Origin: Candidatus Eiseniibacteriota bacterium
GTDB lineage: Bacteria > Arandabacterota > Arandabacteria > Arandabacterales > Arandabacteraceae
NCBI GenBank assembly: GCA_043810925.1
Contig: JBDRNT010000161.1
Location: forward strand, 1-64,000
Length of the DNA stretch: 64,000 bases
Reading direction: 5' to 3'
Shown: positions 16,440 through 50,302 of the stretch, piece after piece
Layout: each line of letters starts with the position of its first letter
Position numbering within the stretch: the stretch's first letter is position 1
The notes under the pieces: generated by a model
What the model was told of the DNA's origin: nothing
Databases searched by the model: none
What the model saw: the letters and a program-made list of their open reading frames with translations, nothing else
Translations under genes and position numbers: made by a program

Positions 16440-17141
16440 ATGGCCTTGCTTGAAGACTTGATTGAGAGCGTAAGACAGAAGGATATGGAGGTCCGGGAGA
16501 TCGTCGCCGGTAGTTCCTGGACAATGGTGGCCACAGCCGGATGGGGGATTGCGGCCGGGCCGGGTGGCGCAGATGCGCTGGATGGTCTATGCGGAAAACC
16601 TGCCGGGGAGTTGCTCGAGTTAGCGTCCCGGCCACGCCCTGTTCGGGCATCCGTCGGCATCGCCACGCTCAACTCCCTGATCATAGGCCAGGTCGACTCC
16701 CGCCATTTCAAGCCATACAAGATACCGACGGCTAAGGACAAGAAGATCGTGGTCGTCGGTGACTTCCATTTCACCGACCATCTGAAGACCATAGCCCTGG
16801 ACGTATGTGTCGTCGAGAAGAACCGGGAAACGGGTGACTATGCAGGAAACGAGCAAGCCTTTCGCGACGCCGATGTGGCGCTTATCAGCGGTGCCACGAT
16901 GGTTGACGGCACACTCGAGTCGCTGCTCAAACTTGCAGGTCCATGCTACACGATAGTCTATGGGCCATCCACTCCGCTTTCTCCGGTCCTCTTTGAGTAC
17001 GGAGCGGATCAGCTCGTGGGGGTCAGGGTCAAAGACGAGATCGCTGCGAAGAGGTGCATCACCGAAGGAATGGGAGATCTGTCGGGGTGCCCCGGACTGG
17101 CCCCCGTGGTCATGGAGGCGGGGCAGAAGGCCACGGACTAG
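16440..17141 (+). CDS. DUF364 (Rossmann-like, putative metal-chelation) protein
   Basis: ASVGIATLNS, VVGDF, ADVALISGATMVDGTLESLL and GPSTPLSPVLF. Confidence 0.82.
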   Translation: MALLEDLIESVRQKDMEVREIVAGSSWTMVATAGWGIAAGPGGADALDGLCGKPAGELLELASRPRPVRASVGIATLNSLIIGQVDSRHFKPYKIPTAKDKKIVVVGDFHFTDHLKTIALDVCVVEKNRETGDYAGNEQAFRDADVALISGATMVDGTLESLLKLAGPCYTIVYGPSTPLSPVLFEYGADQLVGVRVKDEIAAKRCITEGMGDLSGCPGLAPVVMEAGQKATD

Positions 17142-17198
17142 CATGAACGGTGTCCAGGCCCACCCGGCCTGGCAAGATACGGACCGGCGGAGGCAAGA

Positions 17199-17939
17199 GT
17201 GGCCAAGAATTATATGCTCCTGTACGGTAAGAATTCCGTCCTCGAGCGACTGCGGGCGGATCCTGAGAGCATAAAGAAGGTACTGCTATCCGACAAGTTC
17301 CATGAGACTGAGATAGAGGATCTGATAGAGAAGCACGCAGTCCCGGCAGAGAGGCTTACTGCCTCAGACCTGGCTAAGAAAAGACCCGCGAAAGATCTCC
17401 AGGGGATAGTCGCAAAAGTAAGCAAGTTTAAGTATGCCGAGTTCGATGACCTGCTCGGCGTGCCCGAGAGTCAACGACGGACTCTCGTCTTTCTGGACAG
17501 AGTGAACGATCCGCACAACCTTGGGGTGATCCTGCGTACATCGGCTTGTTTCGGTGGATTCGCACTTATCATACCGGAGTTCGAGGCCTGTGACGTCAAT
17601 GAGACGGTTTTACACGTTGCTTCGGGGGCAGAAAACTATACCCCGGTCTCAATGGTGACCAACATCTCACACTCCCTAGCTATAGCGAAGCAGGCCGGCT
17701 ACTGGATTGTGGGCGCCGTGGTGGACGAAGATGCCATCAGCCTGGAAAAGGGCGACTTGCCTTTTCCTCTCGGCCTTGTTTTAGGGTCTGAAGGCTCCGG
17801 GATAAGACACGGCCTGAAGAAACATCTTGATATGAAGGTAAGAATCCCGATGGAAGGTGCCCTGCTGTCCTTCAATGTCAATATCGCTTGCGCCATTTTC
17901 TGTTATGAAATATGCCGGCAGAGAGTACGAGAGCAATAG
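17199..17939 (+). CDS. rlmB: 23S rRNA (guanosine-2251-2'-O)-methyltransferase, SPOUT family
   Basis: YGKNSVLERL, DRVNDPHNLGVILRT, LVLGSEGSGI and IPMEG..SFNV. Confidence 0.88.
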   Translation: MAKNYMLLYGKNSVLERLRADPESIKKVLLSDKFHETEIEDLIEKHAVPAERLTASDLAKKRPAKDLQGIVAKVSKFKYAEFDDLLGVPESQRRTLVFLDRVNDPHNLGVILRTSACFGGFALIIPEFEACDVNETVLHVASGAENYTPVSMVTNISHSLAIAKQAGYWIVGAVVDEDAISLEKGDLPFPLGLVLGSEGSGIRHGLKKHLDMKVRIPMEGALLSFNVNIACAIFCYEICRQRVREQ

Positions 17940-17950
17940 TGGGGATTGGC

Positions 17951-17979
17951 TTGACATTTGCGAGATACGCTCTTATCTT
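17951..17979 (+). promoter_or_regulatory. Sigma70 promoter of the gdh operon
   Basis: TTGACA-17 bp-TATCTT. Confidence 0.6.
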
Positions 17980-18030: not shown

Positions 18031-19314
18031 ATGACCGAGGGGTACAATCCGTTCAAGATGGCACAGGCGCAGTTTGATCGAATTGCGGACCTGCTCAACC
18101 TGGATCAGGCAACCAGAGATCTTCTCCGCTATCCACTGAGGGAATATCACATCAGCATCCCGATCCGAATGGATGATGGCACCTTCAGCGTCTTCCGCGG
18201 CTTCAGGGTCCAGCACAATGATGCTCTTGGCCCGGGCAAGGGTGGTATCCGCTTTCACCCTCAGGAGACTATTGATACCGTTCGTGCCCTCGCCACCTGG
18301 ATGACATGGAAGTGCGCGGTTGTCGATATCCCGTTGGGTGGGAGCAAGGGGGGCGTGGTATGCGATCCTCACAACCTCAGCATGAGAGAGCAGGAACAGA
18401 TATGCCGTGGCTGGGTGCGCCAGATGGCTAAGGATGTGGGACCGCTATCCGATGTTCCGGCACCGGACGTGATGACCACTGCACAACATATGCTCTGGAT
18501 GCTTGACGAATACGAGACTATCCACGGGAAGAAGCAACCCGGTTTCATTACCGGCAAGCCGGTCGGTATGGGTGGATCCCTGGGTCGTAAGGAAGCGACC
18601 GGCTACGGAGTAATTATCACCGTAAGGGAGGCCCTCAAGGAGCTCGGGATACCCCCCAGAGAGACAACTGCGAGTTTGCAGGGTTTCGGGAATGTCTCAC
18701 AATTTGCCATTGAGCTCTACCAGGAGATTAGGGGCAGGGTCATCTGCGTTTCGTGCTGGGATCAGAAGGATGGCTGTTCATACAGCTTCCGGAAGGCCGA
18801 CGGCATCGATTTCAAGGAACTCCTGGCGATAACCGACCGCTTTGGTGGGATCGAAAAGACCAAGGCGATGGAGGCAGGTTACGATGTGCTCCCGGGTGAC
18901 GCCTGGATAGAGCAGGACGTCGACATACTCATCCCGGCGGCCCTTGAAAACCAGATAACCGCCGAGAGCGTAGCAAAGATGAGCCCCAGAGTTAAGATCA
19001 TCGCGGAGGGAGCAAATGGTCCTACGACACCCGAGGCAGACAATCTTATTGCCGAGCGAGGAATATTCATGATACCGGACTCGCTTGCAAACGCAGGGGG
19101 TGTGACCTGCAGTTACTACGAACAGGTCCAGAGCAACACAAATCACTATTGGGAGAAGGACGAGGTCCTGGGCAGGCTGGACACCAAGATGACATCCGCG
19201 TTTATTGCGGTGAGCGAATTGGCCAAGAGGCGGAATCTATATATGCGTGATGCAGCTTACGTTATAGCGGTAAGCAAAGTGGCACAGGCCTGCAAAGACC
19301 GCGGCTGGGTTTAG
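18031..19314 (+). CDS. gdhA: Glutamate dehydrogenase (Glu/Leu/Phe/Val dehydrogenase family)
   Basis: FRVQHN..GPGKGGIRFHP, MTWKCA..PLGGSKGG, DVPAPD, TGKP..GGSLGR, QGFGNV, EGANGP and NAGGVTCSYYE. Confidence 0.95.
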   Translation: MTEGYNPFKMAQAQFDRIADLLNLDQATRDLLRYPLREYHISIPIRMDDGTFSVFRGFRVQHNDALGPGKGGIRFHPQETIDTVRALATWMTWKCAVVDIPLGGSKGGVVCDPHNLSMREQEQICRGWVRQMAKDVGPLSDVPAPDVMTTAQHMLWMLDEYETIHGKKQPGFITGKPVGMGGSLGRKEATGYGVIITVREALKELGIPPRETTASLQGFGNVSQFAIELYQEIRGRVICVSCWDQKDGCSYSFRKADGIDFKELLAITDRFGGIEKTKAMEAGYDVLPGDAWIEQDVDILIPAALENQITAESVAKMSPRVKIIAEGANGPTTPEADNLIAERGIFMIPDSLANAGGVTCSYYEQVQSNTNHYWEKDEVLGRLDTKMTSAFIAVSELAKRRNLYMRDAAYVIAVSKVAQACKDRGWV

Positions 19315-19368
19315 TCAGTTTCATAAGCACACCGCGACCATGCAGACGAAAAGAAGACGGTTGGCAGG

Positions 19369-21132
19369 ATGTCGCAGAGAGGTTACGGACCTCATAACGG
19401 TTCCCTAGCACCCTTCGATCGGCAGTTCTTCACCGGTGAACATAGGTTCACCTCAATAGGCTCAGGCTCCATCGGCGGCAAAGCTCATGGACTTGCCCGC
19501 ATGAAGTCGATCATTGAGTCGAAGTTGAAGGACCGGTTTACACCTGCTGTGACAATAGACATCCCTACCCTTACGGTAATCTCGACGGATCACTTCGACT
19601 TGTTTATGAAACAGAACCGCCTCGAAGACATAGTACTCTCTGACACCCGGGATGATCTGATTGCCCACGCATTCCAGAACGCAGAACTTCCCGCTCAGGT
19701 GGTCGGAGACCTGAGAGCACTGGCTCACGAAGTTCACACCCCGCTTGCAGTCCGCTCCTCGAGCATGCTTGAAGATGCGATGTTCGAACCGTTTGCCAGC
19801 ATCTACGGTACCAAGATGACGCCCTGCAACCAGCCGGATCCTGACGCTCGGTTTCGAAGACTCATTGAGGCCATCAAGCTGATTTATGCGTCTACCTTCT
19901 TCTCCGACGCCCGGAGCTATATGAAGTCCACCAATCACACCACCATGGATGAGAAGATGGCGGTAATCATTCAGGAAGTGGTCGGCACCAGGTTCGGCAA
20001 TAGGTATTACCCGCACATTTCAGGGGTAGCCCGCTCACACAACTTCTATCCGTTCGGACATGCCAGGCCTGAAGAGGGAGTAGTGGATCTTGCGCTGGGC
20101 CTGGGGAAGACCATCGTCGATGAAGGATGTGCTTGGTCGTATTCACCGGAGCACCCACAGGTCGCCCCCCCTTATAACTCGGTTGGCGATCTCCTCAAAC
20201 AGACTCAGACCGACTTCTGGGCGATCAATATGGGGAAACCTCCTGCTTACGATCCGATCAATGAAGTGGAGTATATGGTGAAGTGCAACATCGTTGATGG
20301 AGAATATGACGGCAGCCTTGACCATCTGGTTTCCACATTCCGGCCCGAAAACGAGAGGATTGTCATGGGGATCCAAGGCCGGGGACCGAGAATAGTCGAT
20401 TTCGCCCCGATTCTCAAGGCCGGTGTCGTGCCGATCAACGATCTTGTCCGATTGCTTCTAAAGACCTGTGAGGATGCTCTCGGCACACCTGTAGAAATCG
20501 AGTTTGCAGTGACGCTCGGGCTTGAACAGCCCGCACCCGCCCGATTCGGATTCCTGCAGTTGCGGCCTATGGTAGTCTCCGCAGAATCTGTAGATGTCAG
20601 GCCTGAGGATATGGTCGGAGAGGACGTCATTTTGGCATCGGAAACGGTTACGGGCAATGGCTGCATCGATACGATACGTGATGTTGTATACGTCAAACGG
20701 GAGACTTTCGAGGTTAATCATACGGCCCGCATTGCCGAAGAACTTGACGAAATCAATTGCGGGTTGGCAGACGCCAAGCAACCATACTTGCTTATCGGTT
20801 TCGGCCGCTGGGGCACATCAGACCCGCAGGGAGGCATTCCCGTAAAGTTCGGTCAGATTGCCGGGGCAAAGGTCATCGTTGAGGTGACCCTTCCGGATCT
20901 CGACTTCGGCATGAGCCAGGGTTCGCATTTTTTCCACAACTTAACCAGCTTTCGGATCATCTATTTCTCCGTCCGGCATTCTGCGGACTACAAAATCGAT
21001 TGGGATCGCCTGAACCGGCAGCCTGCAGTACAAGAGACAGAATTTGTGAGACACGTGCGTTTTGATTCTCCTTTACTTGTCAAAGCCGACGGCCGAACCG
21101 GCATGGGAGTGATACAAAGTGAAAGAGCATGA
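19369..21132 (+). CDS. PEP/pyruvate-binding (PPDK_N ATP-grasp) domain protein lacking the C-terminal substrate-binding barrel
   Basis: GSIGGKAHGL, PLAVRSSSMLED, EKMAVIIQEVVG, PVEIEFA..LQLRP, GRWGTSD and SQGSHFFHN. Confidence 0.88.
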   Translation: MSQRGYGPHNGSLAPFDRQFFTGEHRFTSIGSGSIGGKAHGLARMKSIIESKLKDRFTPAVTIDIPTLTVISTDHFDLFMKQNRLEDIVLSDTRDDLIAHAFQNAELPAQVVGDLRALAHEVHTPLAVRSSSMLEDAMFEPFASIYGTKMTPCNQPDPDARFRRLIEAIKLIYASTFFSDARSYMKSTNHTTMDEKMAVIIQEVVGTRFGNRYYPHISGVARSHNFYPFGHARPEEGVVDLALGLGKTIVDEGCAWSYSPEHPQVAPPYNSVGDLLKQTQTDFWAINMGKPPAYDPINEVEYMVKCNIVDGEYDGSLDHLVSTFRPENERIVMGIQGRGPRIVDFAPILKAGVVPINDLVRLLLKTCEDALGTPVEIEFAVTLGLEQPAPARFGFLQLRPMVVSAESVDVRPEDMVGEDVILASETVTGNGCIDTIRDVVYVKRETFEVNHTARIAEELDEINCGLADAKQPYLLIGFGRWGTSDPQGGIPVKFGQIAGAKVIVEVTLPDLDFGMSQGSHFFHNLTSFRIIYFSVRHSADYKIDWDRLNRQPAVQETEFVRHVRFDSPLLVKADGRTGMGVIQSERA

Positions 21133-24100
21133 CCAAAGATCCAGAGAGATCATCCGGTTTCTCCAGGAGCGGGAGAAGGAGCTCGCCTGCCTCTACAAGA
21201 TCGAAGAGGTGACCAACAGGCCCGATGCCGGCCTCGAGAGTGTCTGCAAGACAGCCATAAAGGTGATCCCGCCGGGATGGCAATACCCGGACATCTGCGT
21301 GGTAAGGATCACCGTTGACGGCACGGTGTACAAATCCAAGGGATTCAAGGAGACGCGTTGGGTCCAGTGTGCCGATATGGTTGCTCAGAATCGGCCCCTC
21401 GGGCAGATATGCGTTTACTACACCGAGGAGAGGCCGGAGGCTGACGATGGCCCGTTCCTCAAGGAGGAAACCAGGCTTCTCAAGACCATAGCCCAAAGGA
21501 TCGGGCAGTTTGTCACCTTAAAGCAGGTTGACGATGTCGCCCGTCAACATGAGACTGCGGGTGAGTATCTCGACAACGGTGTGAGCGCCGCCTGGCGTGT
21601 GCTCATGAATCTGGTGAGAGCCACAGATAAGAACCTCTTTCTGACAATATGCCAGAAGATGTTGAACCAGCTTGCATGGGCCGGGGTCGAGGAGATTGAG
21701 GAAATCCTTAAGACCCGCGGCATGGGCCGGGTGGATCTTGAGGAAGAGGCACTCCTCGACGAGAATCGGCCCCATCCGACAATGATTGCGCCTCTCGCGG
21801 AGGACATAGGAGATCGAGTGCTGGAAATCGCCGGGAGGAATCTTCCGGAGAACCAGATTCTGGCAATGATTCAGAAGTGGATGCAGGAAGACAAACTGGC
21901 CTTCCTGTTCCACGTCATAAACCGCGACTCATCACTTGGTGACCTCGATGATACCCTAGAACGATACAAGCGAGTGGCATCGGGAGCTCGCGATCTTGGG
22001 ACATCGACAAGAATCGGTATCAGGGTGGAGCTCATCCGTCGCCTGCTCTCGGAGCAGCTTCAGTACATCAATATAGCAAAGAAGTACTTCAGCATCGACG
22101 ACTTCACCGAGATCCTCAAACGCCTCGTTCACTCTCGTGCGAGTCACGGGAAGCTGGGTGGCAAGAGTGCCGGCCTCCTTCTCGCTGCCCAGATAATATC
22201 TGAATCCGCGGAGGATCATCCCGATCTGCGGAACATAAAGATACCCAGGACTTGGTATATCGCATCCGACGCGGTGTTGGAGTTCTTGAGTTACAACAAT
22301 CTAGGAGAGGTTGTCGAGCAGAAGTACAAAGACATTGGCCGGGTGCGCTTGGAGTACCCGCACGTGATCCAGTCTTTCAAGAACTGTCGGTTTCCTCCGG
22401 AGCTCGTGCGGGGTCTCTCCATGGTGCTTGACGAGTTTCAGGACCGTCCTCTCATAGTCAGAAGTTCGAGTCTGCTTGAAGATAGGGTTGGTGCATCTTT
22501 TTCCAGCAAGTATCGAAGCATCTTCATATCCAACCAGGGAACCAAAAAACAAAGGCTTGAGGCACTGACCGGAGCCATCGCGGAGGTGTATGCCTCGACA
22601 TTCGGACCGGACCCTATAGAGTACCGTGCCGAGAGGGGCCTGATCGATTTCGCAGAAGAGATGGGGATCTTGATACAAGAGGTCGTCGGGACCAAGGTTG
22701 GTGATTACTTCCTGCCTTCCTTTGCAGGAGTCGCTTTCAGCAGGAATGACTTCAGATGGTCACCGCGTATAGAGCGTAAGGATGGAATCGTGAGACTGGT
22801 ACCGGGGCTGGGTACACGGGCGGTCGACCGGGTTGCAAACGATTATCCAATCCTGATAGCCCCGGGGCAGCCGAATCTGAGAGTTAACATGTCTACCGAT
22901 GAGATCGTCCGCTACTCTCCCGTCAAGGCCGATGTCATAAACCTCAAGACCAATGCCTTCGAGACCGTGGATGTCAGGGAACTTCTTAGGAAGGCCGGCA
23001 ATGAGATACCGGGAATAGAGCAGATGATATCCATGTACGATGGTGAGCAGACAAGACAGATCATGGGAATCGGTGTGGATTACGAGAGAGACGATCTGGT
23101 TGTAACGTTTGACGGGCTTGTCGGCAACACCAAATTTGTTTCTCAGATGAGAAGCGCATTGTCGGTTTTGGAGCGTGAGCTACAAACACCTGTTGATATT
23201 GAGTTCGCTCATGACGGGAAGTATCTCTATCTCCTCCAGTGCCGTGCACAGAGCTACTCCGAGGACAGCGCCCCATCGCCCATACCTAAGGATGTCCCCG
23301 AACGCGATATCCTCTTCACGGCCAACAAGTACATCTCAAACGGACGGATTCCCGATATCACACACATCGTATTCGTCGACCCGGATGGATACAGCAACCT
23401 GACAGACAGGTCCGATCTGGTCGAAGTAGGACGCGCGGTAAGCAAACTCAACAATCTCTTGCCTAAGCGTCAGTTCATCCTGATGGGGCCCGGACGGTGG
23501 GGAAGCCGCGGCGACATAAAACTGGGCGTCAACGTAACGTATTCAGACATAAACAACACCGCAGTACTCGTAGAGATTGCACGCAGGAAGGGTGAGTATA
23601 CACCTGAGCTGTCCTTCGGCACCCACTTCTTCCAGGACTTGGTCGAAGCCGGCATCCGCTACCTGCCACTGTATCCCGATGATGAGGGTATGGTTTTCAA
23701 TGATCGTTTTCTCAGGAGCTCCGCGAACATACTTGAGGATCTGGCTCCTGAATTCGAAGGTATCTCCGAGACCGTCAGGTTGATAGATGTCGCAAAGGCA
23801 TCGGACGGCAGGGTCCTTCGCATTCTTATGAATGCAGACTTGAACGAAGCGATCGGGATCTTTGCGGATCCAAGCGAAAGGCTGAGCACCACCCCAGAAG
23901 TGGGAGTGGCAAGTCAGCGGCCGGTGGATACCTACTGGGCCTGGAGATTCCAGATGGCTGAGCACATCGCCCGACAGATTGACCCGGACCGCTTCGGAGT
24001 CAAGGCGATCTATGTCTTCGGCAGTACGAAGAATGCCACCGCAGGTCCTCAGAGCGACATAGACCTCCTGGTTCACTTCCAGGGGACGGATAATCAGCGC

Positions 24101-24301
24101 AGGAACCTCGAGATATGGCTTGAAGGATGGAGCTTGAGCCTCGCGCAGGTGAACTACTTGCGAACCGGATATCTCACCGACGGGCTACTGGATGTCCATA
24201 TCATAACCGATGAGGATATTGTCAATAAGACAAGCTACGCCTCAAAGATAGGAGCAGTGACTGATCCGGCGAGGCGGCTGTCTTTGGGTGAGCGGAAGTA
24301 A
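21119..24301 (+). CDS. Multidomain protein: GAF-like sensor + PPDK_N ATP-grasp + C-terminal nucleotidyltransferase
   Basis: N-terminal LQEREKELACLY..IPPGWQYP..GPFLKEE; core LGGKSAGL, LIVRSSSLLED, DIEFAHD..LLQCR and SFGTHFF; C-terminal YVFGSTKNATAGPQSDIDL (pol-beta NTase GS..DxD). Confidence 0.88.
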   Translation: MKEHDQRSREIIRFLQEREKELACLYKIEEVTNRPDAGLESVCKTAIKVIPPGWQYPDICVVRITVDGTVYKSKGFKETRWVQCADMVAQNRPLGQICVYYTEERPEADDGPFLKEETRLLKTIAQRIGQFVTLKQVDDVARQHETAGEYLDNGVSAAWRVLMNLVRATDKNLFLTICQKMLNQLAWAGVEEIEEILKTRGMGRVDLEEEALLDENRPHPTMIAPLAEDIGDRVLEIAGRNLPENQILAMIQKWMQEDKLAFLFHVINRDSSLGDLDDTLERYKRVASGARDLGTSTRIGIRVELIRRLLSEQLQYINIAKKYFSIDDFTEILKRLVHSRASHGKLGGKSAGLLLAAQIISESAEDHPDLRNIKIPRTWYIASDAVLEFLSYNNLGEVVEQKYKDIGRVRLEYPHVIQSFKNCRFPPELVRGLSMVLDEFQDRPLIVRSSSLLEDRVGASFSSKYRSIFISNQGTKKQRLEALTGAIAEVYASTFGPDPIEYRAERGLIDFAEEMGILIQEVVGTKVGDYFLPSFAGVAFSRNDFRWSPRIERKDGIVRLVPGLGTRAVDRVANDYPILIAPGQPNLRVNMSTDEIVRYSPVKADVINLKTNAFETVDVRELLRKAGNEIPGIEQMISMYDGEQTRQIMGIGVDYERDDLVVTFDGLVGNTKFVSQMRSALSVLERELQTPVDIEFAHDGKYLYLLQCRAQSYSEDSAPSPIPKDVPERDILFTANKYISNGRIPDITHIVFVDPDGYSNLTDRSDLVEVGRAVSKLNNLLPKRQFILMGPGRWGSRGDIKLGVNVTYSDINNTAVLVEIARRKGEYTPELSFGTHFFQDLVEAGIRYLPLYPDDEGMVFNDRFLRSSANILEDLAPEFEGISETVRLIDVAKASDGRVLRILMNADLNEAIGIFADPSERLSTTPEVGVASQRPVDTYWAWRFQMAEHIARQIDPDRFGVKAIYVFGSTKNATAGPQSDIDLLVHFQGTDNQRRNLEIWLEGWSLSLAQVNYLRTGYLTDGLLDVHIITDEDIVNKTSYASKIGAVTDPARRLSLGERK

Positions 24302-24314
24302 GGGTCCCCCCGGC

Positions 24315-25178
24315 CTAAATCAGTTCACGCGAAGCACTACCAGGATCATCAGCACTGAATCTTACAATTGCCAGCTCAGGACCATCATGGGCGGCGGAGA
24401 ACATCCATGTCCGCCCGATCTTATCCCTCCACGAGCCGGTGAGCCTGGCGGATTCATGCACATGTCCATGGAGAGTCAATAGGGGTTGTTTCTCCTCTAT
24501 GAACCGTCTGACCGCGATGCTCCCCACATAAAGGTCCAGGGGAACACCTTCGACCAACTTGCCGTCAAGATCTGCCCGGTCGAGCTTGGTCTGATACGGG
24601 GGCACATGGAACAGGAAAACCGCGTTTGTAAGGTCATCTCCACTAACAAGGTTATCAAGATCCTCCTTAATCGTGGAATATCTCTTCTCACTGCGCGACA
24701 CCTCCAGTGAGCGTCGACCCTCTTCAGGGGACACACATCCCGGGTCGACATATCGTGACACATCGTAGCGTTCCCAGTCTTTCAGGTGAAACGGTGTGGG
24801 ATTCACAAACGAGTAGCCGTAAACCGTATGTCTACCCAGAGAGGATTTGCGGCCTTGGACATATTCCAGCACTCCCCTTTCCTCACCGGCACGCATCCCC
24901 TCCTCTTCCGCTCGCAGGTCGTCATTGCCAAGGATCGCAAGAACGCGTGGATAATCGGTCCCCAAAGCAGTCTTTATATCCGACAGGGCCGGGATCATGA
25001 AGTCCTTTATGAAGTCGTCCGGCAGGGATCCGTCGGTCTGTAAAGCCGTCAGACTGGAAGGCAGCAGGTCACCGCCGAGAAACACCGCTTCCGGTCTTTC
25101 CTGCTCAATTACCCGGAAGAGATTAGCATACCTATCTAGCCTGCCATGGAGATCAGATACAAACATCGACTTTCTCAA
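24315..25178 (-). CDS. Calcineurin-like metallophosphoesterase (Icc-related)
   Basis: VSDLHG, LGGDLL, ILGNDD, FHVPP and LHGHVHES. Likely TTG start at 25178 after a GAGG RBS. Confidence 0.88.
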   Translation of the reverse strand: MRKSMFVSDLHGRLDRYANLFRVIEQERPEAVFLGGDLLPSSLTALQTDGSLPDDFIKDFMIPALSDIKTALGTDYPRVLAILGNDDLRAEEEGMRAGEERGVLEYVQGRKSSLGRHTVYGYSFVNPTPFHLKDWERYDVSRYVDPGCVSPEEGRRSLEVSRSEKRYSTIKEDLDNLVSGDDLTNAVFLFHVPPYQTKLDRADLDGKLVEGVPLDLYVGSIAVRRFIEEKQPLLTLHGHVHESARLTGSWRDKIGRTWMFSAAHDGPELAIVRFSADDPGSASRELI

Positions 25179-25509
25179 CCGTCTAGTACCTCGGGCATAT
25201 AGACCTGAATGCATGCACCCTATAGATGCCTCTACGTGACCAAACACACCACATTCGATTTGTATCTTAGTCTTCAGATCAAGAATTCGCAAGTCGGTTC
25301 CATACGTGGTGCGGACTCCGGAGCAGGTGATATGACCAAGGGGGCAGCACATTCAATGTGCGTCAACGCACTCAGGAGAGCGACCCTCCAGGTAAAGGAG
25401 GATCTTAACAGAATAAGCGACTTCATGGACCAGGACGGGGATTGCGACGGCAAGGTGGTCGTGACACACTCCCTCTTTCCTCTTACCCTTCAGATATATC
25501 ACGAATCTA

Positions 25510-48868: not shown

Positions 48869-50302
48869 TCAGCAACCGAGGTGACGCTCGATCTCATAGG
48901 GGTGTGGATGTCGCTTCGTGTCACACACTTCCGCCTGCTTGAGATCCATCCACATGTCAATCAGATCCTCGGTGAATACTCCCGATTCAAGCAGGAATCG
49001 ATTATCCTCCCGCAGGGCATCAAGGGCCTCTTGAAGTGCGAACGGTACGGGGGTGATTCCCTTTCCTTCAAGATCGGCAACGCCGAAGACATCGAGATCG
49101 TAGGGTCCGAATCCTTCCTTCTCGGGGTCGATCCTCCGTTTGATCCCGTCCAGACCTGCCATCAGCATGGCAGCAACCGACAGATATGGATTGCCGCTCG
49201 CATCGGACGGACGGAATTCGATTCGCGCCTCATCGGCCGTGTTTATGCCCTTGGGAATCCTTACAGCCGCGCTTCTGTTGCCGATCGCGAAGACGAAGCA
49301 GGTGGGAGCCTCAAAGCCGGGCACAAGTCTTCTGTAGGAGTTGGTAGTGGGACATGTCAGGGCAAGCAACGCCCTGCCGTGCTTGAGTATGCCGCCGATG
49401 TAGTACATGGCCACTTTGCTCAGATTTCCATAGCCCCCCCTCTTGAAGAACATGTTCTTGCCACCCTTGACAAGATTCTGGTGAAAATGCATCCCGTTTC
49501 CGGGCTGGCCGTAGAGAGGTTTTGGAAGGAAGGTGGCTACCATGTCGTGGGCGGCAGCCAGTGTTTTTATCAAGTGCTTACCCACCATAATCTGGTCCGC
49601 AGCACGCCTGAGGGTCGCGGGGCGCACCTCTATCTCACATTGCCCGGCTGAACCGGCTTCGTGATGGGAGTACTTAACCGGTATCCCCGCCTTTTCCATC
49701 TCAGCAACCATAAGTGTGCGCAGTGACAGGCACCGGTCAGTCGGAGGCAGGGCGTGATAGCCGCCCTTCTGGCTTATCCAGGGATACACCTTGGCATCAT
49801 CCTCCGGCTCGATCCCCGCCTCCTCGGATCTCACCGAGTAGCCTGTGACCTCCGGAAGGCCCATCACCATGACCTCATCAAACAGATTGAACTCAAGCTC
49901 CGGCATGAAGAAAGCCTTATCGGCAATCCGGGTCTTTGCGAGATGGCTTTCGGCCCTGTCGGCAACCAGTCTGGGGTCACGGGCAAACGGTTTCTTTGTG
50001 TCCGCCTCAACACAGTTGCATATGAAACTCACAGACCTGGCATCCACGGTCTCCTCGATGAAAGAAGCTGCGGCATCGGGGATCAGACGCAGATCCCCGC
50101 TCTCGAGTCTTGTGAATCCTGGAATACTCGACCCGTCGAAAGCGACACCTCTCTGGAAGGTGTGCGGTCCAAAATTGGATAAGGGCAGGGTCACCTGGTG
50201 CCAGCGCCCGATGAGATCCACGAACTTGAGGTTGACGAACTCTGCATCGGACTTTCTGACAAAGCCGACCGCCTTCTTGATACTATCCGCTCTCTGTGCC
50301 AC
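48869..50302 (-). CDS. glnA: Glutamine synthetase type I
   Basis: FDGSSIPGF, PELEF, HHEAG..GQCEI, PKPLYGQPGNGMHFH, NSYRRLVPGFEAP, NRSAAVRIP and IEFRPSD..NPYL. Confidence 0.95.
   Translation of the reverse strand: MAQRADSIKKAVGFVRKSDAEFVNLKFVDLIGRWHQVTLPLSNFGPHTFQRGVAFDGSSIPGFTRLESGDLRLIPDAAASFIEETVDARSVSFICNCVEADTKKPFARDPRLVADRAESHLAKTRIADKAFFMPELEFNLFDEVMVMGLPEVTGYSVRSEEAGIEPEDDAKVYPWISQKGGYHALPPTDRCLSLRTLMVAEMEKAGIPVKYSHHEAGSAGQCEIEVRPATLRRAADQIMVGKHLIKTLAAAHDMVATFLPKPLYGQPGNGMHFHQNLVKGGKNMFFKRGGYGNLSKVAMYYIGGILKHGRALLALTCPTTNSYRRLVPGFEAPTCFVFAIGNRSAAVRIPKGINTADEARIEFRPSDASGNPYLSVAAMLMAGLDGIKRRIDPEKEGFGPYDLDVFGVADLEGKGITPVPFALQEALDALREDNRFLLESGVFTEDLIDMWMDLKQAEVCDTKRHPHPYEIERHLGC

Follow-up and report, generated by a model that had tools for sequence, protein, structure and literature searches.

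A dikinase-like protein pair without an acceptor domain accompanies a glutamate dehydrogenase-fold protein in a four-gene bacterial cassette

The nucleotidyltransferases GlnE and GlnD control nitrogen enzymes, and PtsP (EI-Ntr, the Enzyme I of the nitrogen PTS) combines a GAF sensor with a swivelling phospho-His domain at the junction of nitrogen and carbon metabolism. Glutamate dehydrogenase (GDH) folds can also serve outside catalysis: the GDH complex GdhA/GdhB of Thermus thermophilus contains a non-catalytic GDH-like subunit, and in Bacillus subtilis the GDH RocG acts as a trigger enzyme that controls GltC. The closest structural relatives of the proteins described here are dikinases. According to PMC12167813, the characterised members PEP synthase, PPDK, RPH, HpeHI, CreHI and PpsAB (phenylphosphate synthase) all phosphorylate small molecules, the canonical His motif is GGxT(S/C)H, and the domains of a dikinase may be distributed among several proteins, the two-component enzymes keeping the acceptor site on a protein of its own (HpeH). 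Here we describe a gene cassette with partial likeness to each of these systems; our literature search found no paper on it.

The window, a stretch of 64,000 nt (positions 1–64,000, forward strand, of contig JBDRNT010000161.1, assembly GCA_043810925.1), derives from a Candidatus Eiseniibacteriota bacterium (GTDB lineage Bacteria; Arandabacterota; Arandabacteria; Arandabacterales; Arandabacteraceae). It holds a complete copy of the cassette, which comprises gdh, two dikinase-like genes that we call short and long, and a convergent metallophosphoesterase gene (Table 1). The spacing between gdh and short is 54 nt, short and long overlap by 14 nt, and 13 nt separate the end of long from the convergent gene. 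The true start of the phosphoesterase is probably the Met at 25166, giving 283 aa, because all homologs begin there. Promoter-like sites such as the one upstream of gdh were not commoner than in shuffles (4 found, 5.9 expected).

Table 1. Coordinates of the cassette genes and their parts within the window
Feature	Position	Strand	Basis
Promoter-like site TTGACA-17-TATCTT, upstream of gdh	17951-17979	+	10/12 matches; weak
Glutamate dehydrogenase gene gdh, 427 aa	18031-19314	+	ORF; Pfam ELFV_dehydrog_N E 3e-52, ELFV_dehydrog E 7e-67
Short paralog, 587 aa: ATP-grasp and C-terminal His module, without acceptor domain	19369-21132	+	ORF, Pfam, paralog alignment
Short: PPDK_N ATP-grasp domain, residues 34-415	19468-20613	+	Pfam E 1e-35, invariant columns, structure matches
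Short: C-terminal GRWG / SQGSH(520)FF module, swivelling-type fold	20602-21129	+	Alignments, VIA structure matches
Long paralog, 1060 aa, GTG start	21119-24301	+	ORF, Pfam, homolog conservation
Long: GAF-like N-terminal domain, residues 1-135, invariant C24 and C60	21119-21523	+	Weak Pfam/Atlas matches, invariant columns
Long: region without Pfam or PDB-sequence match, residues 136-340	21524-22138	+	Least conserved, 33% mean identity
Long: PPDK_N ATP-grasp domain, residues 345-728	22151-23302	+	Pfam E 5e-56
Long: C-terminal GRWG / SFGTH(836)FF module	23321-23833	+	Model and VIA; most conserved part of long, 66%
Long: pol-beta-type minimal nucleotidyltransferase domain	23834-24301	+	Pfam NTP_transf_2/Polbeta, residues 957-1009, E 3e-8
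Calcineurin-like metallophosphoesterase, convergent	24315-25352	-	Pfam Metallophos E 2e-9

Short and long are paralogs, with 28% identity over 552 aa (E 3e-41), C-terminal module included, and belong as divergent members to the PEP-utilising dikinase superfamily. A preliminary description, made from the sequence alone, had reported gdhA followed by two overlapping, co-directional PPDK_N genes, whose products shared the motifs GGK, VRSSS, EFA and LQxR and a GRWG/HFF module with a conserved His while lacking the pyruvate-binding barrel. These observations are confirmed. Open reading frames and Pfam matches are as described, and the four motifs are invariant in 28 short homologs (including K38, R129, E376, E378, Q397 and R399 of short) and reach at least 98% conservation across 61 long homologs (K349, R448 and the EFA and LLQCR motifs of long). 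PPDK_N is the only Pfam family of short, and the families listed for the two proteins include neither PEP-utilizers (PF00391) nor the PEP-utilizers_C barrel. The likeness to PpsA and PPDK lies in a PPDK_N domain with GGK, RSS, E..E and Q.R, placed ahead of a carrier-like domain, whereas the PEP/pyruvate-binding TIM barrel and the canonical phospho-His domain are missing; all NCBIfam PEP-synthase scores fall far below their cut-offs (e.g. 43.5 against 598).

Structurally, the ATP-grasp domain is closest to those of the RPH, HpeHI, CreHI and PpsAB group. In the AlphaFold2 model of short (pLDDT 77.9), it matched RPH in Foldseek (E 1e-12) and in VIA (5hv1; Z 23.5, rmsd 3.2, 286 aa), as well as HpeI (9goj; Z 18.2). 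As in that group, a swivelling-type domain with a conserved His appears to follow. The cassette genes differ in being linked to gdh rather than to aromatic catabolism or resistance, long adds GAF-like and nucleotidyltransferase (NTase) parts, and the rifampin-binding-like acceptor domain of RPH has no counterpart in the pair. Natural short-long fusions of about 1630 aa, with both halves verified, account for 6 of the 120 long homologs listed, one of them occurring on 6 contigs. The gene overlap and these fusions indicate that short and long most likely act together.

When 65 short- and long-type C-terminal modules are aligned, G.GRWG, E, S.G.HFF and Y are among the columns that never vary; the invariant His is H520 in short and H836 in long. 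The motif of the module, S-x-G-(S/T)-H-F-F, departs from the canonical one of the RPH-type enzymes, profile-profile and Pfam searches detected no homology to PEP-utilizers, and Foldseek returned nothing for the module at E ≤1e-3. In VIA, the short module matched 2e28 475–582 (Z 6.8, rmsd 2.9, 107 aa) and 2fm4, labelled as the PPDK phosphoryl carrier domain (Z 6.7, rmsd 4.1, 119 aa), while the model of the long module (pLDDT 90.4) matched DRTGG 2ioj best (Z 6.5), followed by the RPH His domain 756–860 (Z 5.3, rmsd 3.6, 102 aa), 2e28 (Z 5.2), Enzyme I (Z 5.0), PPDK 386–504 (Z 4.5) and, among EI and EI-Ntr N-terminal regions, 2wqd (Z 5.0) and 5t12 (Z 4.2); no carrier-domain Z exceeds 6.8, and according to the tool's notes a match under Z 8 may mean only a common arrangement. 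The matches include phospho-His carriers of RPH, PPDK and Enzyme I as well as the C-terminal segment of pyruvate kinase. The His loop of the short model has a pLDDT below 50; in the long model, the His sits at the N-terminus of helix 115–122, between strands 95–99 and 126–130. Modeled in this way, the module resembles a swivelling-type, phospho-His-carrier-like domain at modest Z, the comparison that the preliminary description had proposed. Autophosphorylation on the invariant His is plausible because of this predicted fold, the carrier matches and the position of the His at a helix N-terminus between two strands. The earlier label "headless" therefore needs qualifying: the acceptor-substrate domain is indeed missing, the ATP-grasp domain (34–415) and C-module (412–587) using up the sequence of short, but a carrier-like domain seems to be retained.

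The N-terminus of long may provide an input domain. In the long family, 9 of 27 members match Pfam GAF at E ≤5, two match GAF_3 (4.4e-5), and Atlas feature matches point to GAF clusters (0.87–0.90); the GAF-like assignment of the preliminary description is weakly supported by these matches, the best Pfam GAF E value being 1.6e-4. Residues 136–340 gave no Pfam match and no PDB-sequence match. In outline, the combination of an N-terminal GAF-type sensor with a His carrier, from which phosphate would be handed on to a partner protein, recalls PtsP. However, an ATP-grasp takes the place of the PEP-binding barrel as phosphoryl donor domain, and we saw no HPr- or NPr-like protein among the cassette genes. 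The pol-beta NTase at the C-terminus of long is intact, with G968-S969, D980, D982 and D1025 at least 98% conserved in 61 sequences. It shares with GlnE, GlnD and MntA the G-S, the DxD and the third Asp, and is encoded beside an enzyme central to nitrogen metabolism; among NCBIfam models MntA comes nearest, its 25.5 bits lying under the cut-off of 60. In contrast to GlnE and GlnD, however, it is a minimal domain of about 155 aa fused to a dikinase-like protein, and the cassette lacks a HEPN partner. Sequence comparison of the phosphoesterase with solved structures gave no close relative (best E 0.042), and its motifs DxH, GD, GNDD, H and GHxH are conserved in 51 sequences. Together with its conserved position, these motifs suggest a putative eraser.

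The four genes form one cassette, and its linkage to gdh, which the preliminary description had proposed to survey, is conserved across many phyla; this decisively removes the objection considered there, that such linkage might be absent. A short-type relative is encoded in at least 589 of the 597 matched stretches listed from species genomes. We analyzed the 80 best related species loci, labelled as coming from at least 10 phyla; because they were chosen as top matches to two peptide patterns of the short type, the following figures describe close relatives only. Of the 67 loci with room, 61 have gdh directly upstream of short and in the same orientation; a long paralog lies downstream of short in 63 of 66, and the NTase is carried on long in 60 of 63. 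The phosphoesterase is found in 49 of 57 loci, in 41 of them convergent within 400 nt. Six of the 67 loci have the pair without an adjacent gdh, including one (L037) with a restriction-modification gene inserted between gdh and the pair. Within the window's phylum, co-occurrence is perfect: of the 18 genomes, the 8 that have short and long all encode a cassette-type GDH (at least 78% identity), and none of the 10 others does. GDH and the pair share a contig in 7 of these 8 genomes, and in G003 one fragment does so. The cassette's distribution within the phylum is patchy.

The GDH of the window retains the catalytic Lys106 of GGxKGG, along with K70 and K94. It scores 469 bits against NCBIfam GdhA_Arch, under the cut-off of 750, and shares 59–81% identity with its counterparts in 42 related cassettes. 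The catalytic Lys is needed for the normal GDH reaction, which Lys-less GDHs cannot perform. It is absent from 12 of 67 cassette GDHs, yet these keep K70 and K94, and in a 43-row alignment including 10 Lys-less members R186 is invariant and D146 nearly so. The Lys-less GDHs still precede intact short, long and phosphoesterase genes, and nine form a clade with ordinary end-branch lengths. This clade is maintained, and control of GDH catalysis therefore cannot be the whole function. The covalent control of GDH proposed in the preliminary description is partly supported, by the gdh linkage and the modeled fold of the C-terminal module, with GDH itself as a putative target; the partner would be the GDH-fold protein rather than GDH flux. 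A GDH-fold protein kept for a non-catalytic role has parallels in GdhA/GdhB and RocG, but those have no dikinase-like, NTase or phosphoesterase partners.

We tentatively favor a model in which the dikinase-like pair acts on or with the GDH-fold protein. Short and long, as a pair, would move a phosphoryl or pyrophosphoryl group from ATP onto the module His (H520/H836), from which it would pass to an acceptor that the GDH-fold protein provides in trans, either one of its residues or a ligand in its glutamate/2-oxoglutarate pocket. The GAF-like domain may act as a ligand sensor, the NTase could add a second, nucleotidyl mark, and the phosphoesterase would take the mark off. Together, these steps would make the cassette either a covalent switch that responds to a signal or a device for ATP coupling, placed at the 2-oxoglutarate/glutamate node.

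Alternatively, though we consider this rather unlikely, GDH could be the input, an active or dead trigger enzyme that tells short and long whether its glutamate, 2-oxoglutarate or NAD(P)H site is occupied; the phosphoryl or nucleotidyl output of the pair would go to another target elsewhere in the cell. RocG provides a precedent, and the residues preserved in the Lys-less GDHs, the maintenance of these GDHs as a clade, the second, intact GdhA-type GDH in 8 of the 12 dead-GDH loci and the two-component regulators in 16 of 80 loci are consistent with such a role. However, long already has a GAF-like sensor of its own, and the 80 loci revealed no conserved candidate target beyond the four cassette genes, the next family being mixed receiver/kinase proteins in only 16 loci.

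Paralogs elsewhere bear on a further alternative. Among 18 loci with room on both sides of the C106-type paralog, 11 place it next to a true NADP-GdhA, and other paralogs follow glutamate-synthase-like genes, so that the family also stands next to a second GDH class and to non-homologous enzymes with the same metabolites. A shared metabolite would explain such partner swapping no less well than a shared protein target, and we therefore keep a metabolite-level role open. The pair would then act as a dikinase on a small molecule, some metabolite of the glutamate/2-oxoglutarate node, possibly in the GDH active site, coupling ATP hydrolysis to the reaction or making a phosphorylated product, with no protein modified. 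This agrees with the substrates of all the characterised relatives and with the separate acceptor protein HpeH, but we regard it as improbable: short has no room for an acceptor-binding domain, the GAF-like, NTase and phosphoesterase parts look regulatory, and the Lys-less GDHs are incapable of the normal reaction. Moreover, glutamine synthetase is present in 18 of 18 phylum genomes, and hence no missing assimilation step needs filling. Finally, it is extremely improbable that the pair is simply a PEP synthase or PPDK of the ordinary kind, or belongs to an anti-phage defence island, and lies beside gdh by chance; domain content and synteny contradict this. Some homologs are database-named "pyruvate, water dikinase" or "pyruvate, phosphate dikinase", the distribution is patchy, and the NTase core has a match among candidate defence models (PDC-S09, E 3.5e-9 over 37 residues), but the PEP-binding barrel and canonical His domain are absent, a true 851-aa PEP synthase is encoded elsewhere in the genome, PADLOC found no match for short or GDH and matched long only at its generic minimal-NTase core, and the gdh linkage is far too regular for chance.

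The two ATP-using enzymes of this cassette are unstudied. Because they and the phosphoesterase travel with gdh as a unit across many phyla, the cassette is probably an undescribed switch or ATP-coupling device at a central step of nitrogen metabolism.

The ORF listing and Pfam bear out the gene layout and domains of the preliminary description: gdh is followed on the same strand by the genes for two PPDK_N paralogs, here called short and long, and a metallophosphoesterase gene converges on long.

Coordinates of the cassette genes and of the neighbouring and related features (window positions unless a locus is named)
Feature	Position	Strand	Remarks
DUF364/DUF4213 and SpoU-type genes	16440-17939		upstream of gdh
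gdh	18031-19314	+	both ELFV domains (Pfam)
short, 587 aa	19369-21132	+	54 nt past gdh; PPDK_N (residues 34-415) is the sole Pfam family
long, 1060 aa	21119-24301	+	starts 14 nt before the stop of short; PPDK_N 345-728, pol-beta NTase 957-1009
GAF-like domain of long	21119-21523		
Metallophosphoesterase	24315-25352	-	convergent on long, 13-nt gap (Pfam)
Glutamine synthetase	48884-49981	-	Gln-synt_C, E 2e-104
Region of the third paralog, contig C106 of the same genome	L111:2401-8149		paralog of 978 aa, PPDK_N 429-807
Region of the fourth paralog, contig C76 of the same genome	L112:18-4212	-	paralog of 568 aa
Further occurrences of the GAF-like domain	L113:2496-5639; contig C175 of the same genome		
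Type ISP restriction-modification gene	L037:5752-8961		1069 aa
Sigma-54 response regulator	L150:3932-5299		NtrC family
Truncated long-type protein	L165:8715-10841		708 aa

PPDK_N (PF01326) is matched at E 1e-35 by short and 5e-56 by long, and the two align as paralogs (28% identity, 552 aa, E 3e-41) over a span that includes their common C-terminal module (C-module). Neither has a Pfam match to PEP-utilizers or PEP-utilizers_C, and the barrel described as absent is indeed missing: Pfam finds none, short stops after its His module, and the C-terminal remainder of long is a nucleotidyltransferase (NTase). Scores of both proteins against the NCBIfam models for PEP synthase, PPDK, rifampin phosphotransferase (RPH) and PigC all lie far under the cut-offs, and a normal 851-aa PEP synthase is encoded elsewhere in the genome. 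The window GDH, besides its ELFV domains, has the GGxKGG catalytic lysine. The run of three co-directional genes is not interrupted by any terminator-like site. A promoter-like site precedes gdh, such sites being no commoner in this DNA than in shuffled sequence. The upstream genes, which encode a DUF364/DUF4213 protein (“putative heavy-metal chelation”) and a SpoU-type RNA methyltransferase, lie outside the cassette, since tblastn finds them in none of 80 related loci. A glutamine synthetase gene is located about 24 kb downstream, and two related genomes (G002 and G008) have the other GDH type at most about 3 kb away from such a gene. The idea that the pair replaces glutamine synthetase was rejected, as all 18 genomes examined in the phylum have Gln-synt_C.

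The family is large. Relatives of short form at least 7,988 clusters at E up to 1e-10, are still 62-65% identical to it in other phyla, and are named only “hypothetical” or “PEP/pyruvate-binding domain-containing protein”. The 6,064 relatives of long at E up to 1e-30 are labeled “predicted nucleotidyltransferase”, “pyruvate, water dikinase”, “pyruvate, phosphate dikinase” or similar; the name “pyruvate, water dikinase” is wrong for these proteins. For the C-module, we found 2,330 representative clusters (50% identity) at E up to 1e-3, and 712 at E up to 1e-30. Judged from the alignments, all catalytic signatures are strongly constrained. All 28 aligned homologs of short share the ATP-grasp Lys, Arg, Glu and Gln/Arg, and in 61 homologs of long these residues are at least 98% conserved. 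The proposed common GRWG/HFF module with a conserved histidine (H520 in short, H836 in long) is confirmed by the columns G.GRWG, E, S.G.HFF and Y, which are invariant over 65 short- and long-type modules. [quoted passage not shown]

In a model of short (pLDDT 77.9), the N-terminal 400 residues resemble the RPH ATP-grasp domain (Foldseek E 1e-12; VIA Z 23.5, rmsd 3.2, 286 aa) and also match HpeI (Z 18.2) and PPDK (Z 12.2). By Pfam, conservation and fold, a PpsA/PPDK-type N-terminal ATP-grasp domain with the catalytic Lys, Arg, Glu and Gln/Arg is present. Three VIA rows for this model cover mainly residues 413-587; the C-module of short resembles a C-terminal segment of Geobacillus pyruvate kinase (2e28, 475-582; Z 6.8, rmsd 2.9, 107 aa), the phosphoryl carrier domain of PPDK (2fm4; Z 6.7, rmsd 4.1, 119 aa) and a DRTGG domain (Z 6.2). 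The C-module of long, modeled alone (pLDDT 90.4), matches best a DRTGG domain (Z 6.5) and the RPH His domain (756-860; Z 5.3, rmsd 3.6, 102 aa), followed by 2e28 (Z 5.2), RraA (5.0), Enzyme I (5.0) and PPDK 386-504 (4.5), with 2fm4 and EI-Ntr (both Z 4.2) the weakest carrier domains listed. Its match list further includes LeuD, aconitase X, the N-terminal domain of the CPS small subunit, transferrin-receptor apical domains, putative cyclases, the fumarase beta subunit and LD-carboxypeptidase, and we take the folds matched to be members of the SCOP “swivelling beta/beta/alpha” fold. His836 is placed by the model at the N-terminus of a helix, between two strands, which is presumably where PEP-utilizer domains have their catalytic histidine.

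The models support assignment of the C-module to the swivelling-type fold class, and the order of the domains together with the invariant histidine makes a relationship to phospho-His domains plausible. The likeness to the swivelling His domain holds for the fold class, but homology is not seen in sequence profiles and all Z values are modest (4.2-6.8 for the phospho-His domain matches). PF00391 had no match at E up to 10 in 32 C-modules, Pfam returning only scattered single-member noise, and hhalign against 29 true PEP-utilizer domains of related genomes gave a probability of 0.2. Against PDB sequences, the C-module profile gave chance matches only (an FNIP-repeat protein, longin domains), and whole short and whole long reached E 0.057 or worse. 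Foldseek on the isolated C-module had no match at E up to 1e-3 (best RraA, 0.028), and an Atlas search with the C-module of short returned only unnamed clusters, possibly of the same family.

The proteins had been called “headless”. This is correct in that they have neither acceptor domain nor barrel, but they retain a C-terminal swivelling-type domain with an invariant histidine, and “dikinases without acceptor domain” therefore fits better. The ATP-grasp domain (34-415) and the C-module (412-587) together fill short, and an RPH-type (rifampin-binding-like) acceptor domain is absent. A report on HpeHI describes dikinase domains split between two proteins and gives GGxT(S/C)H as the canonical dikinase His motif (PMC12167813). 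The C-module differs from this PEP-utilizers motif in carrying SxG(S/T)HFF, and no HpeH-like partner gene occurs among the conserved neighbors.

Likeness of the N-terminus of long (residues 1 to ~135) to GAF domains, as first proposed, is weak: 9 of 27 relatives match PF01590 at E up to 5 (best 1.6e-4) and two match GAF_3 (4.4e-5), with Atlas feature scores to GAF of 0.87-0.90, but the window protein itself reaches only E 0.14 against Pfam GAF. C24 and C60 are invariant in this domain, which appears, from its sequence relatives, to be a reusable sensor module. It also starts a PAS/HisKA/HATPase histidine kinase on contig C119 (32% identity, 209 aa) and opens a protein on contig C175. Residues 136-340 have no match in Pfam or among PDB sequences, and the profile of the N-terminal region gave only chance matches to short peptide chains in the PDB. 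The NTase is a minimal MNT-like domain (PF01909, 34.6 bits; cut-off 21) whose pol-beta motif is intact as described, with the G-S pair (G968, S969), the DxD motif (D980, D982) and the third aspartate (D1025) at least 98% conserved in 61 sequences. The phosphoesterase (PF00149, 38.4 bits; cut-off 21.5) conserves the motifs SDLHG, GGD, GNDD, FH.PP and HGHVHE in 51 sequences, and its profile found no close solved relative in the PDB (best E 0.042, aq_1956). About 62 N-terminal residues of its longest ORF are common to no homolog, and the true start is probably the Met at 25166.

To assess linkage, one genome per species was scanned; at least 597 stretches matched, at least 589 of which encode a relative, and the best 80 loci were retained. 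Because the scan patterns were two short-type peptides, this sample comprises close relatives only. By tblastn, GDH was found in 72 of the 80 loci, the NTase in 67 and the phosphoesterase in 53. The gdh linkage anticipated for PPDK_N-only proteins proved conserved once contig ends were allowed for.

Conservation of the cassette in the best 80 of at least 597 matching stretches, allowing for contig ends
Arrangement	Loci	Exceptions
gdh directly upstream of short, same strand	61/67	L025, L028, L037, L054, L059, L068
long downstream of short	63/66	L038, L075, L077
NTase present on long	60/63	L045, L063, L066
Phosphoesterase within locus	49/57; convergent within 400 nt in 41	8 loci without

In one exception, L037, gdh and short are separated by an inserted Type ISP restriction-modification gene, and in L054 and L068 unrelated secreted-protein or transposase genes lie upstream. 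These best 80 loci are labeled Ignavibacteriota, Krumholzibacteriota, Aminicenantes, Acidobacteriota, Bacteroidota, Calditrichota, Zixiibacteriota, Eisenbacteria, Gemmatimonadota, Planctomycetota, Chloroflexota and others. Clustering all their flanking ORFs revealed no fifth conserved cassette gene, the largest groups being short/long (77 loci), GDH (61), phosphoesterase (49) and then a receiver/histidine-kinase mix (16). Among 18 genomes of the window's phylum, 11 encode the C-module and eight the short/long pair, and cassette-type GDH (78-100% identity) is found in exactly those eight. GDH and the pair share one contig in seven of them, and in G003 one fragment shares the contig; the remaining ten genomes have GDH-family genes of at most 43% identity, or none. 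This exact co-occurrence indicates that GDH and the short/long pair are gained and lost as one unit.

Proteins of about 1630 aa, which account for 6 of 120 listed homologs of long, represent fusions of short and long. The N-terminal half of P0338 is short-type (51% identity, 571 aa), and P0121 has a complete long-type C-terminal part (44%, 1057 aligned positions). P0121, P0122 and P0123 are singletons at 90% identity and, taken alone, could be frameshift artefacts; several fusions form multi-member clusters or are present on several contigs, and it is the multi-contig fusions that carry the argument. Together with the overlapping genes, these natural fusions argue that short and long work as one unit. 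A complex prediction for GDH (6-427) and short (12-587), both entered as alignments, yielded scores of 0.01 and 0.00, the mark being 0.32, and speaks neither for nor against binding.

Paralogs also stand beside other enzymes. The third paralog of the genome (43% identical to short), whose N-terminal ~430 aa are of no recognized type, lies directly after an 841-aa GltD-like iron-sulfur flavoprotein (Fer2_4, Fer4_20, Pyr_redox_2) and a BadF/BcrA-type ATPase. The fourth, which is very divergent (24% identical to short, no Pfam match), comes after a Glu_synthase-domain protein and a ferredoxin-like Fer2_4/Fer4 protein. The latter two genes recur at 75-80% identity ahead of a short/long pair in the metagenome locus L165, where short and a truncated long are preceded by a NuoE-like gene, a NuoF-GltD fusion, a ferredoxin-like gene and a Glu_synthase-domain gene. 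In 15 of 29 metagenome loci (11 of 18 with room on both sides), a GDH-family gene is no more than 400 nt away from the third type; this neighbor is a true NADP-GdhA (PRK09414, 763.6 bits; cut-off 536) that is only 30-33% identical to cassette GDH. The presence of paralogs beside GdhA and glutamate-synthase-like genes leads us to conclude that the superfamily follows enzymes of the 2-oxoglutarate/glutamate node. The truncated long-type protein of L165, a glutamate-synthase-linked variant of the cassette, ends after the ATP-grasp domain and has neither His module nor NTase. In locus L150, an NtrC-family response regulator is encoded directly upstream of a GdhA gene and a paralog of the third type.

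The GGxKGG catalytic lysine (K106) is replaced in 10 of 43 aligned cassette GDHs. Of the 67 in which the motif region is covered, 12 have S, N, Y, E, T or Q in its place, and all 67 retain K70 and K94. In the 43-row alignment, R186 is invariant and D146 is present in 42. An intact GdhA-type GDH is also found at 8 of the 12 Lys-less loci, compared with just one of the 55 in which the cassette GDH is intact. A quick ML tree was built from 65 rows (the window, 62 cassette GDHs and two outgroups); on it, the Lys-less label needs four changes, of which the starred branches force at least two. Nine Lys-less copies group together in one clade (99% SH-aLRT), their end branches measuring 0.05-0.33 versus a median of 0.16, while L066 and L075 are singletons on long branches. 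The short, long and phosphoesterase genes are intact in Lys-less loci, and the C-module histidine is still invariant. The maintenance of Lys-less GDHs argues that the cassette needs a GDH-fold protein, not necessarily GDH catalysis. Lys-less loci (seen in L006, L007, L008, L013, L030 and L066) often carry NuoF-like (Complex1_51K) and NuoE-like (2Fe-2S thioredoxin-like) genes, both in the vicinity of an additional GDH of GdhA type and of another PPDK_N paralog.

We tentatively favor a reading in which short and long would autophosphorylate on the C-module histidine using ATP, and the phosphorylated histidine would hand its group to an acceptor supplied by the GDH-fold protein. Sensing would fall to the GAF-like domain, the NTase would be a second writer, and the phosphoesterase would be the eraser. 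It is rather unlikely that GDH is instead the sensor, with the output elsewhere, and a little more doubtful that the pair has a small-molecule or ATP-coupling role. More improbable still is a reading in which the GDH-fold protein would supply the third domain that a split dikinase lacks, making an ATP-coupled glutamate dehydrogenase. Here the swivelling histidine of short or long would bring ATP phosphate into the glutamate/2-oxoglutarate pocket of GDH and the bound intermediate would be phosphorylated, so that ATP would drive reductive amination or a similar conversion. Gating would be the task of the GAF, NTase and phosphoesterase parts, and Lys-less variants would be specialized for binding or for another product. 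If true, this would add a third ammonium-assimilation route to those through GDH alone and through GS-GOGAT. Both an ordinary dikinase and a defence island are extremely unlikely, and the latter was rejected because PADLOC has no match for GDH or short and long matches its candidate family PDC-S09 only through a 37-residue NTase core; the phosphoesterase reaches E 0.0017 against PADLOC models.

GDH stands at the junction of carbon and nitrogen metabolism, and the bacterial GDH controls known to us are allosteric, transcriptional or exerted via small binding proteins. The cassette parts belong to known superfamilies, and we know of no described precedent for an acceptor-less dikinase with a divergent His module or for obligate pairing with GDH. 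In open-access PMC and bioRxiv full text (subscription journals and supplements lay outside the search), we found no paper linking the short/long family or the cassette to GDH; in the ProFaNA paper, PPDK_N is reportedly mentioned only beside SelO. A family of thousands of sequence clusters is tied to GDH as one inherited unit. If this family modifies GDH or couples it to ATP, it would represent a writer/eraser system of a novel kind acting on a central enzyme and the first member of the dikinase superfamily that takes its acceptor from another enzyme. Such a role would also correct a widespread misannotation and explain the retention of dead GDH copies.
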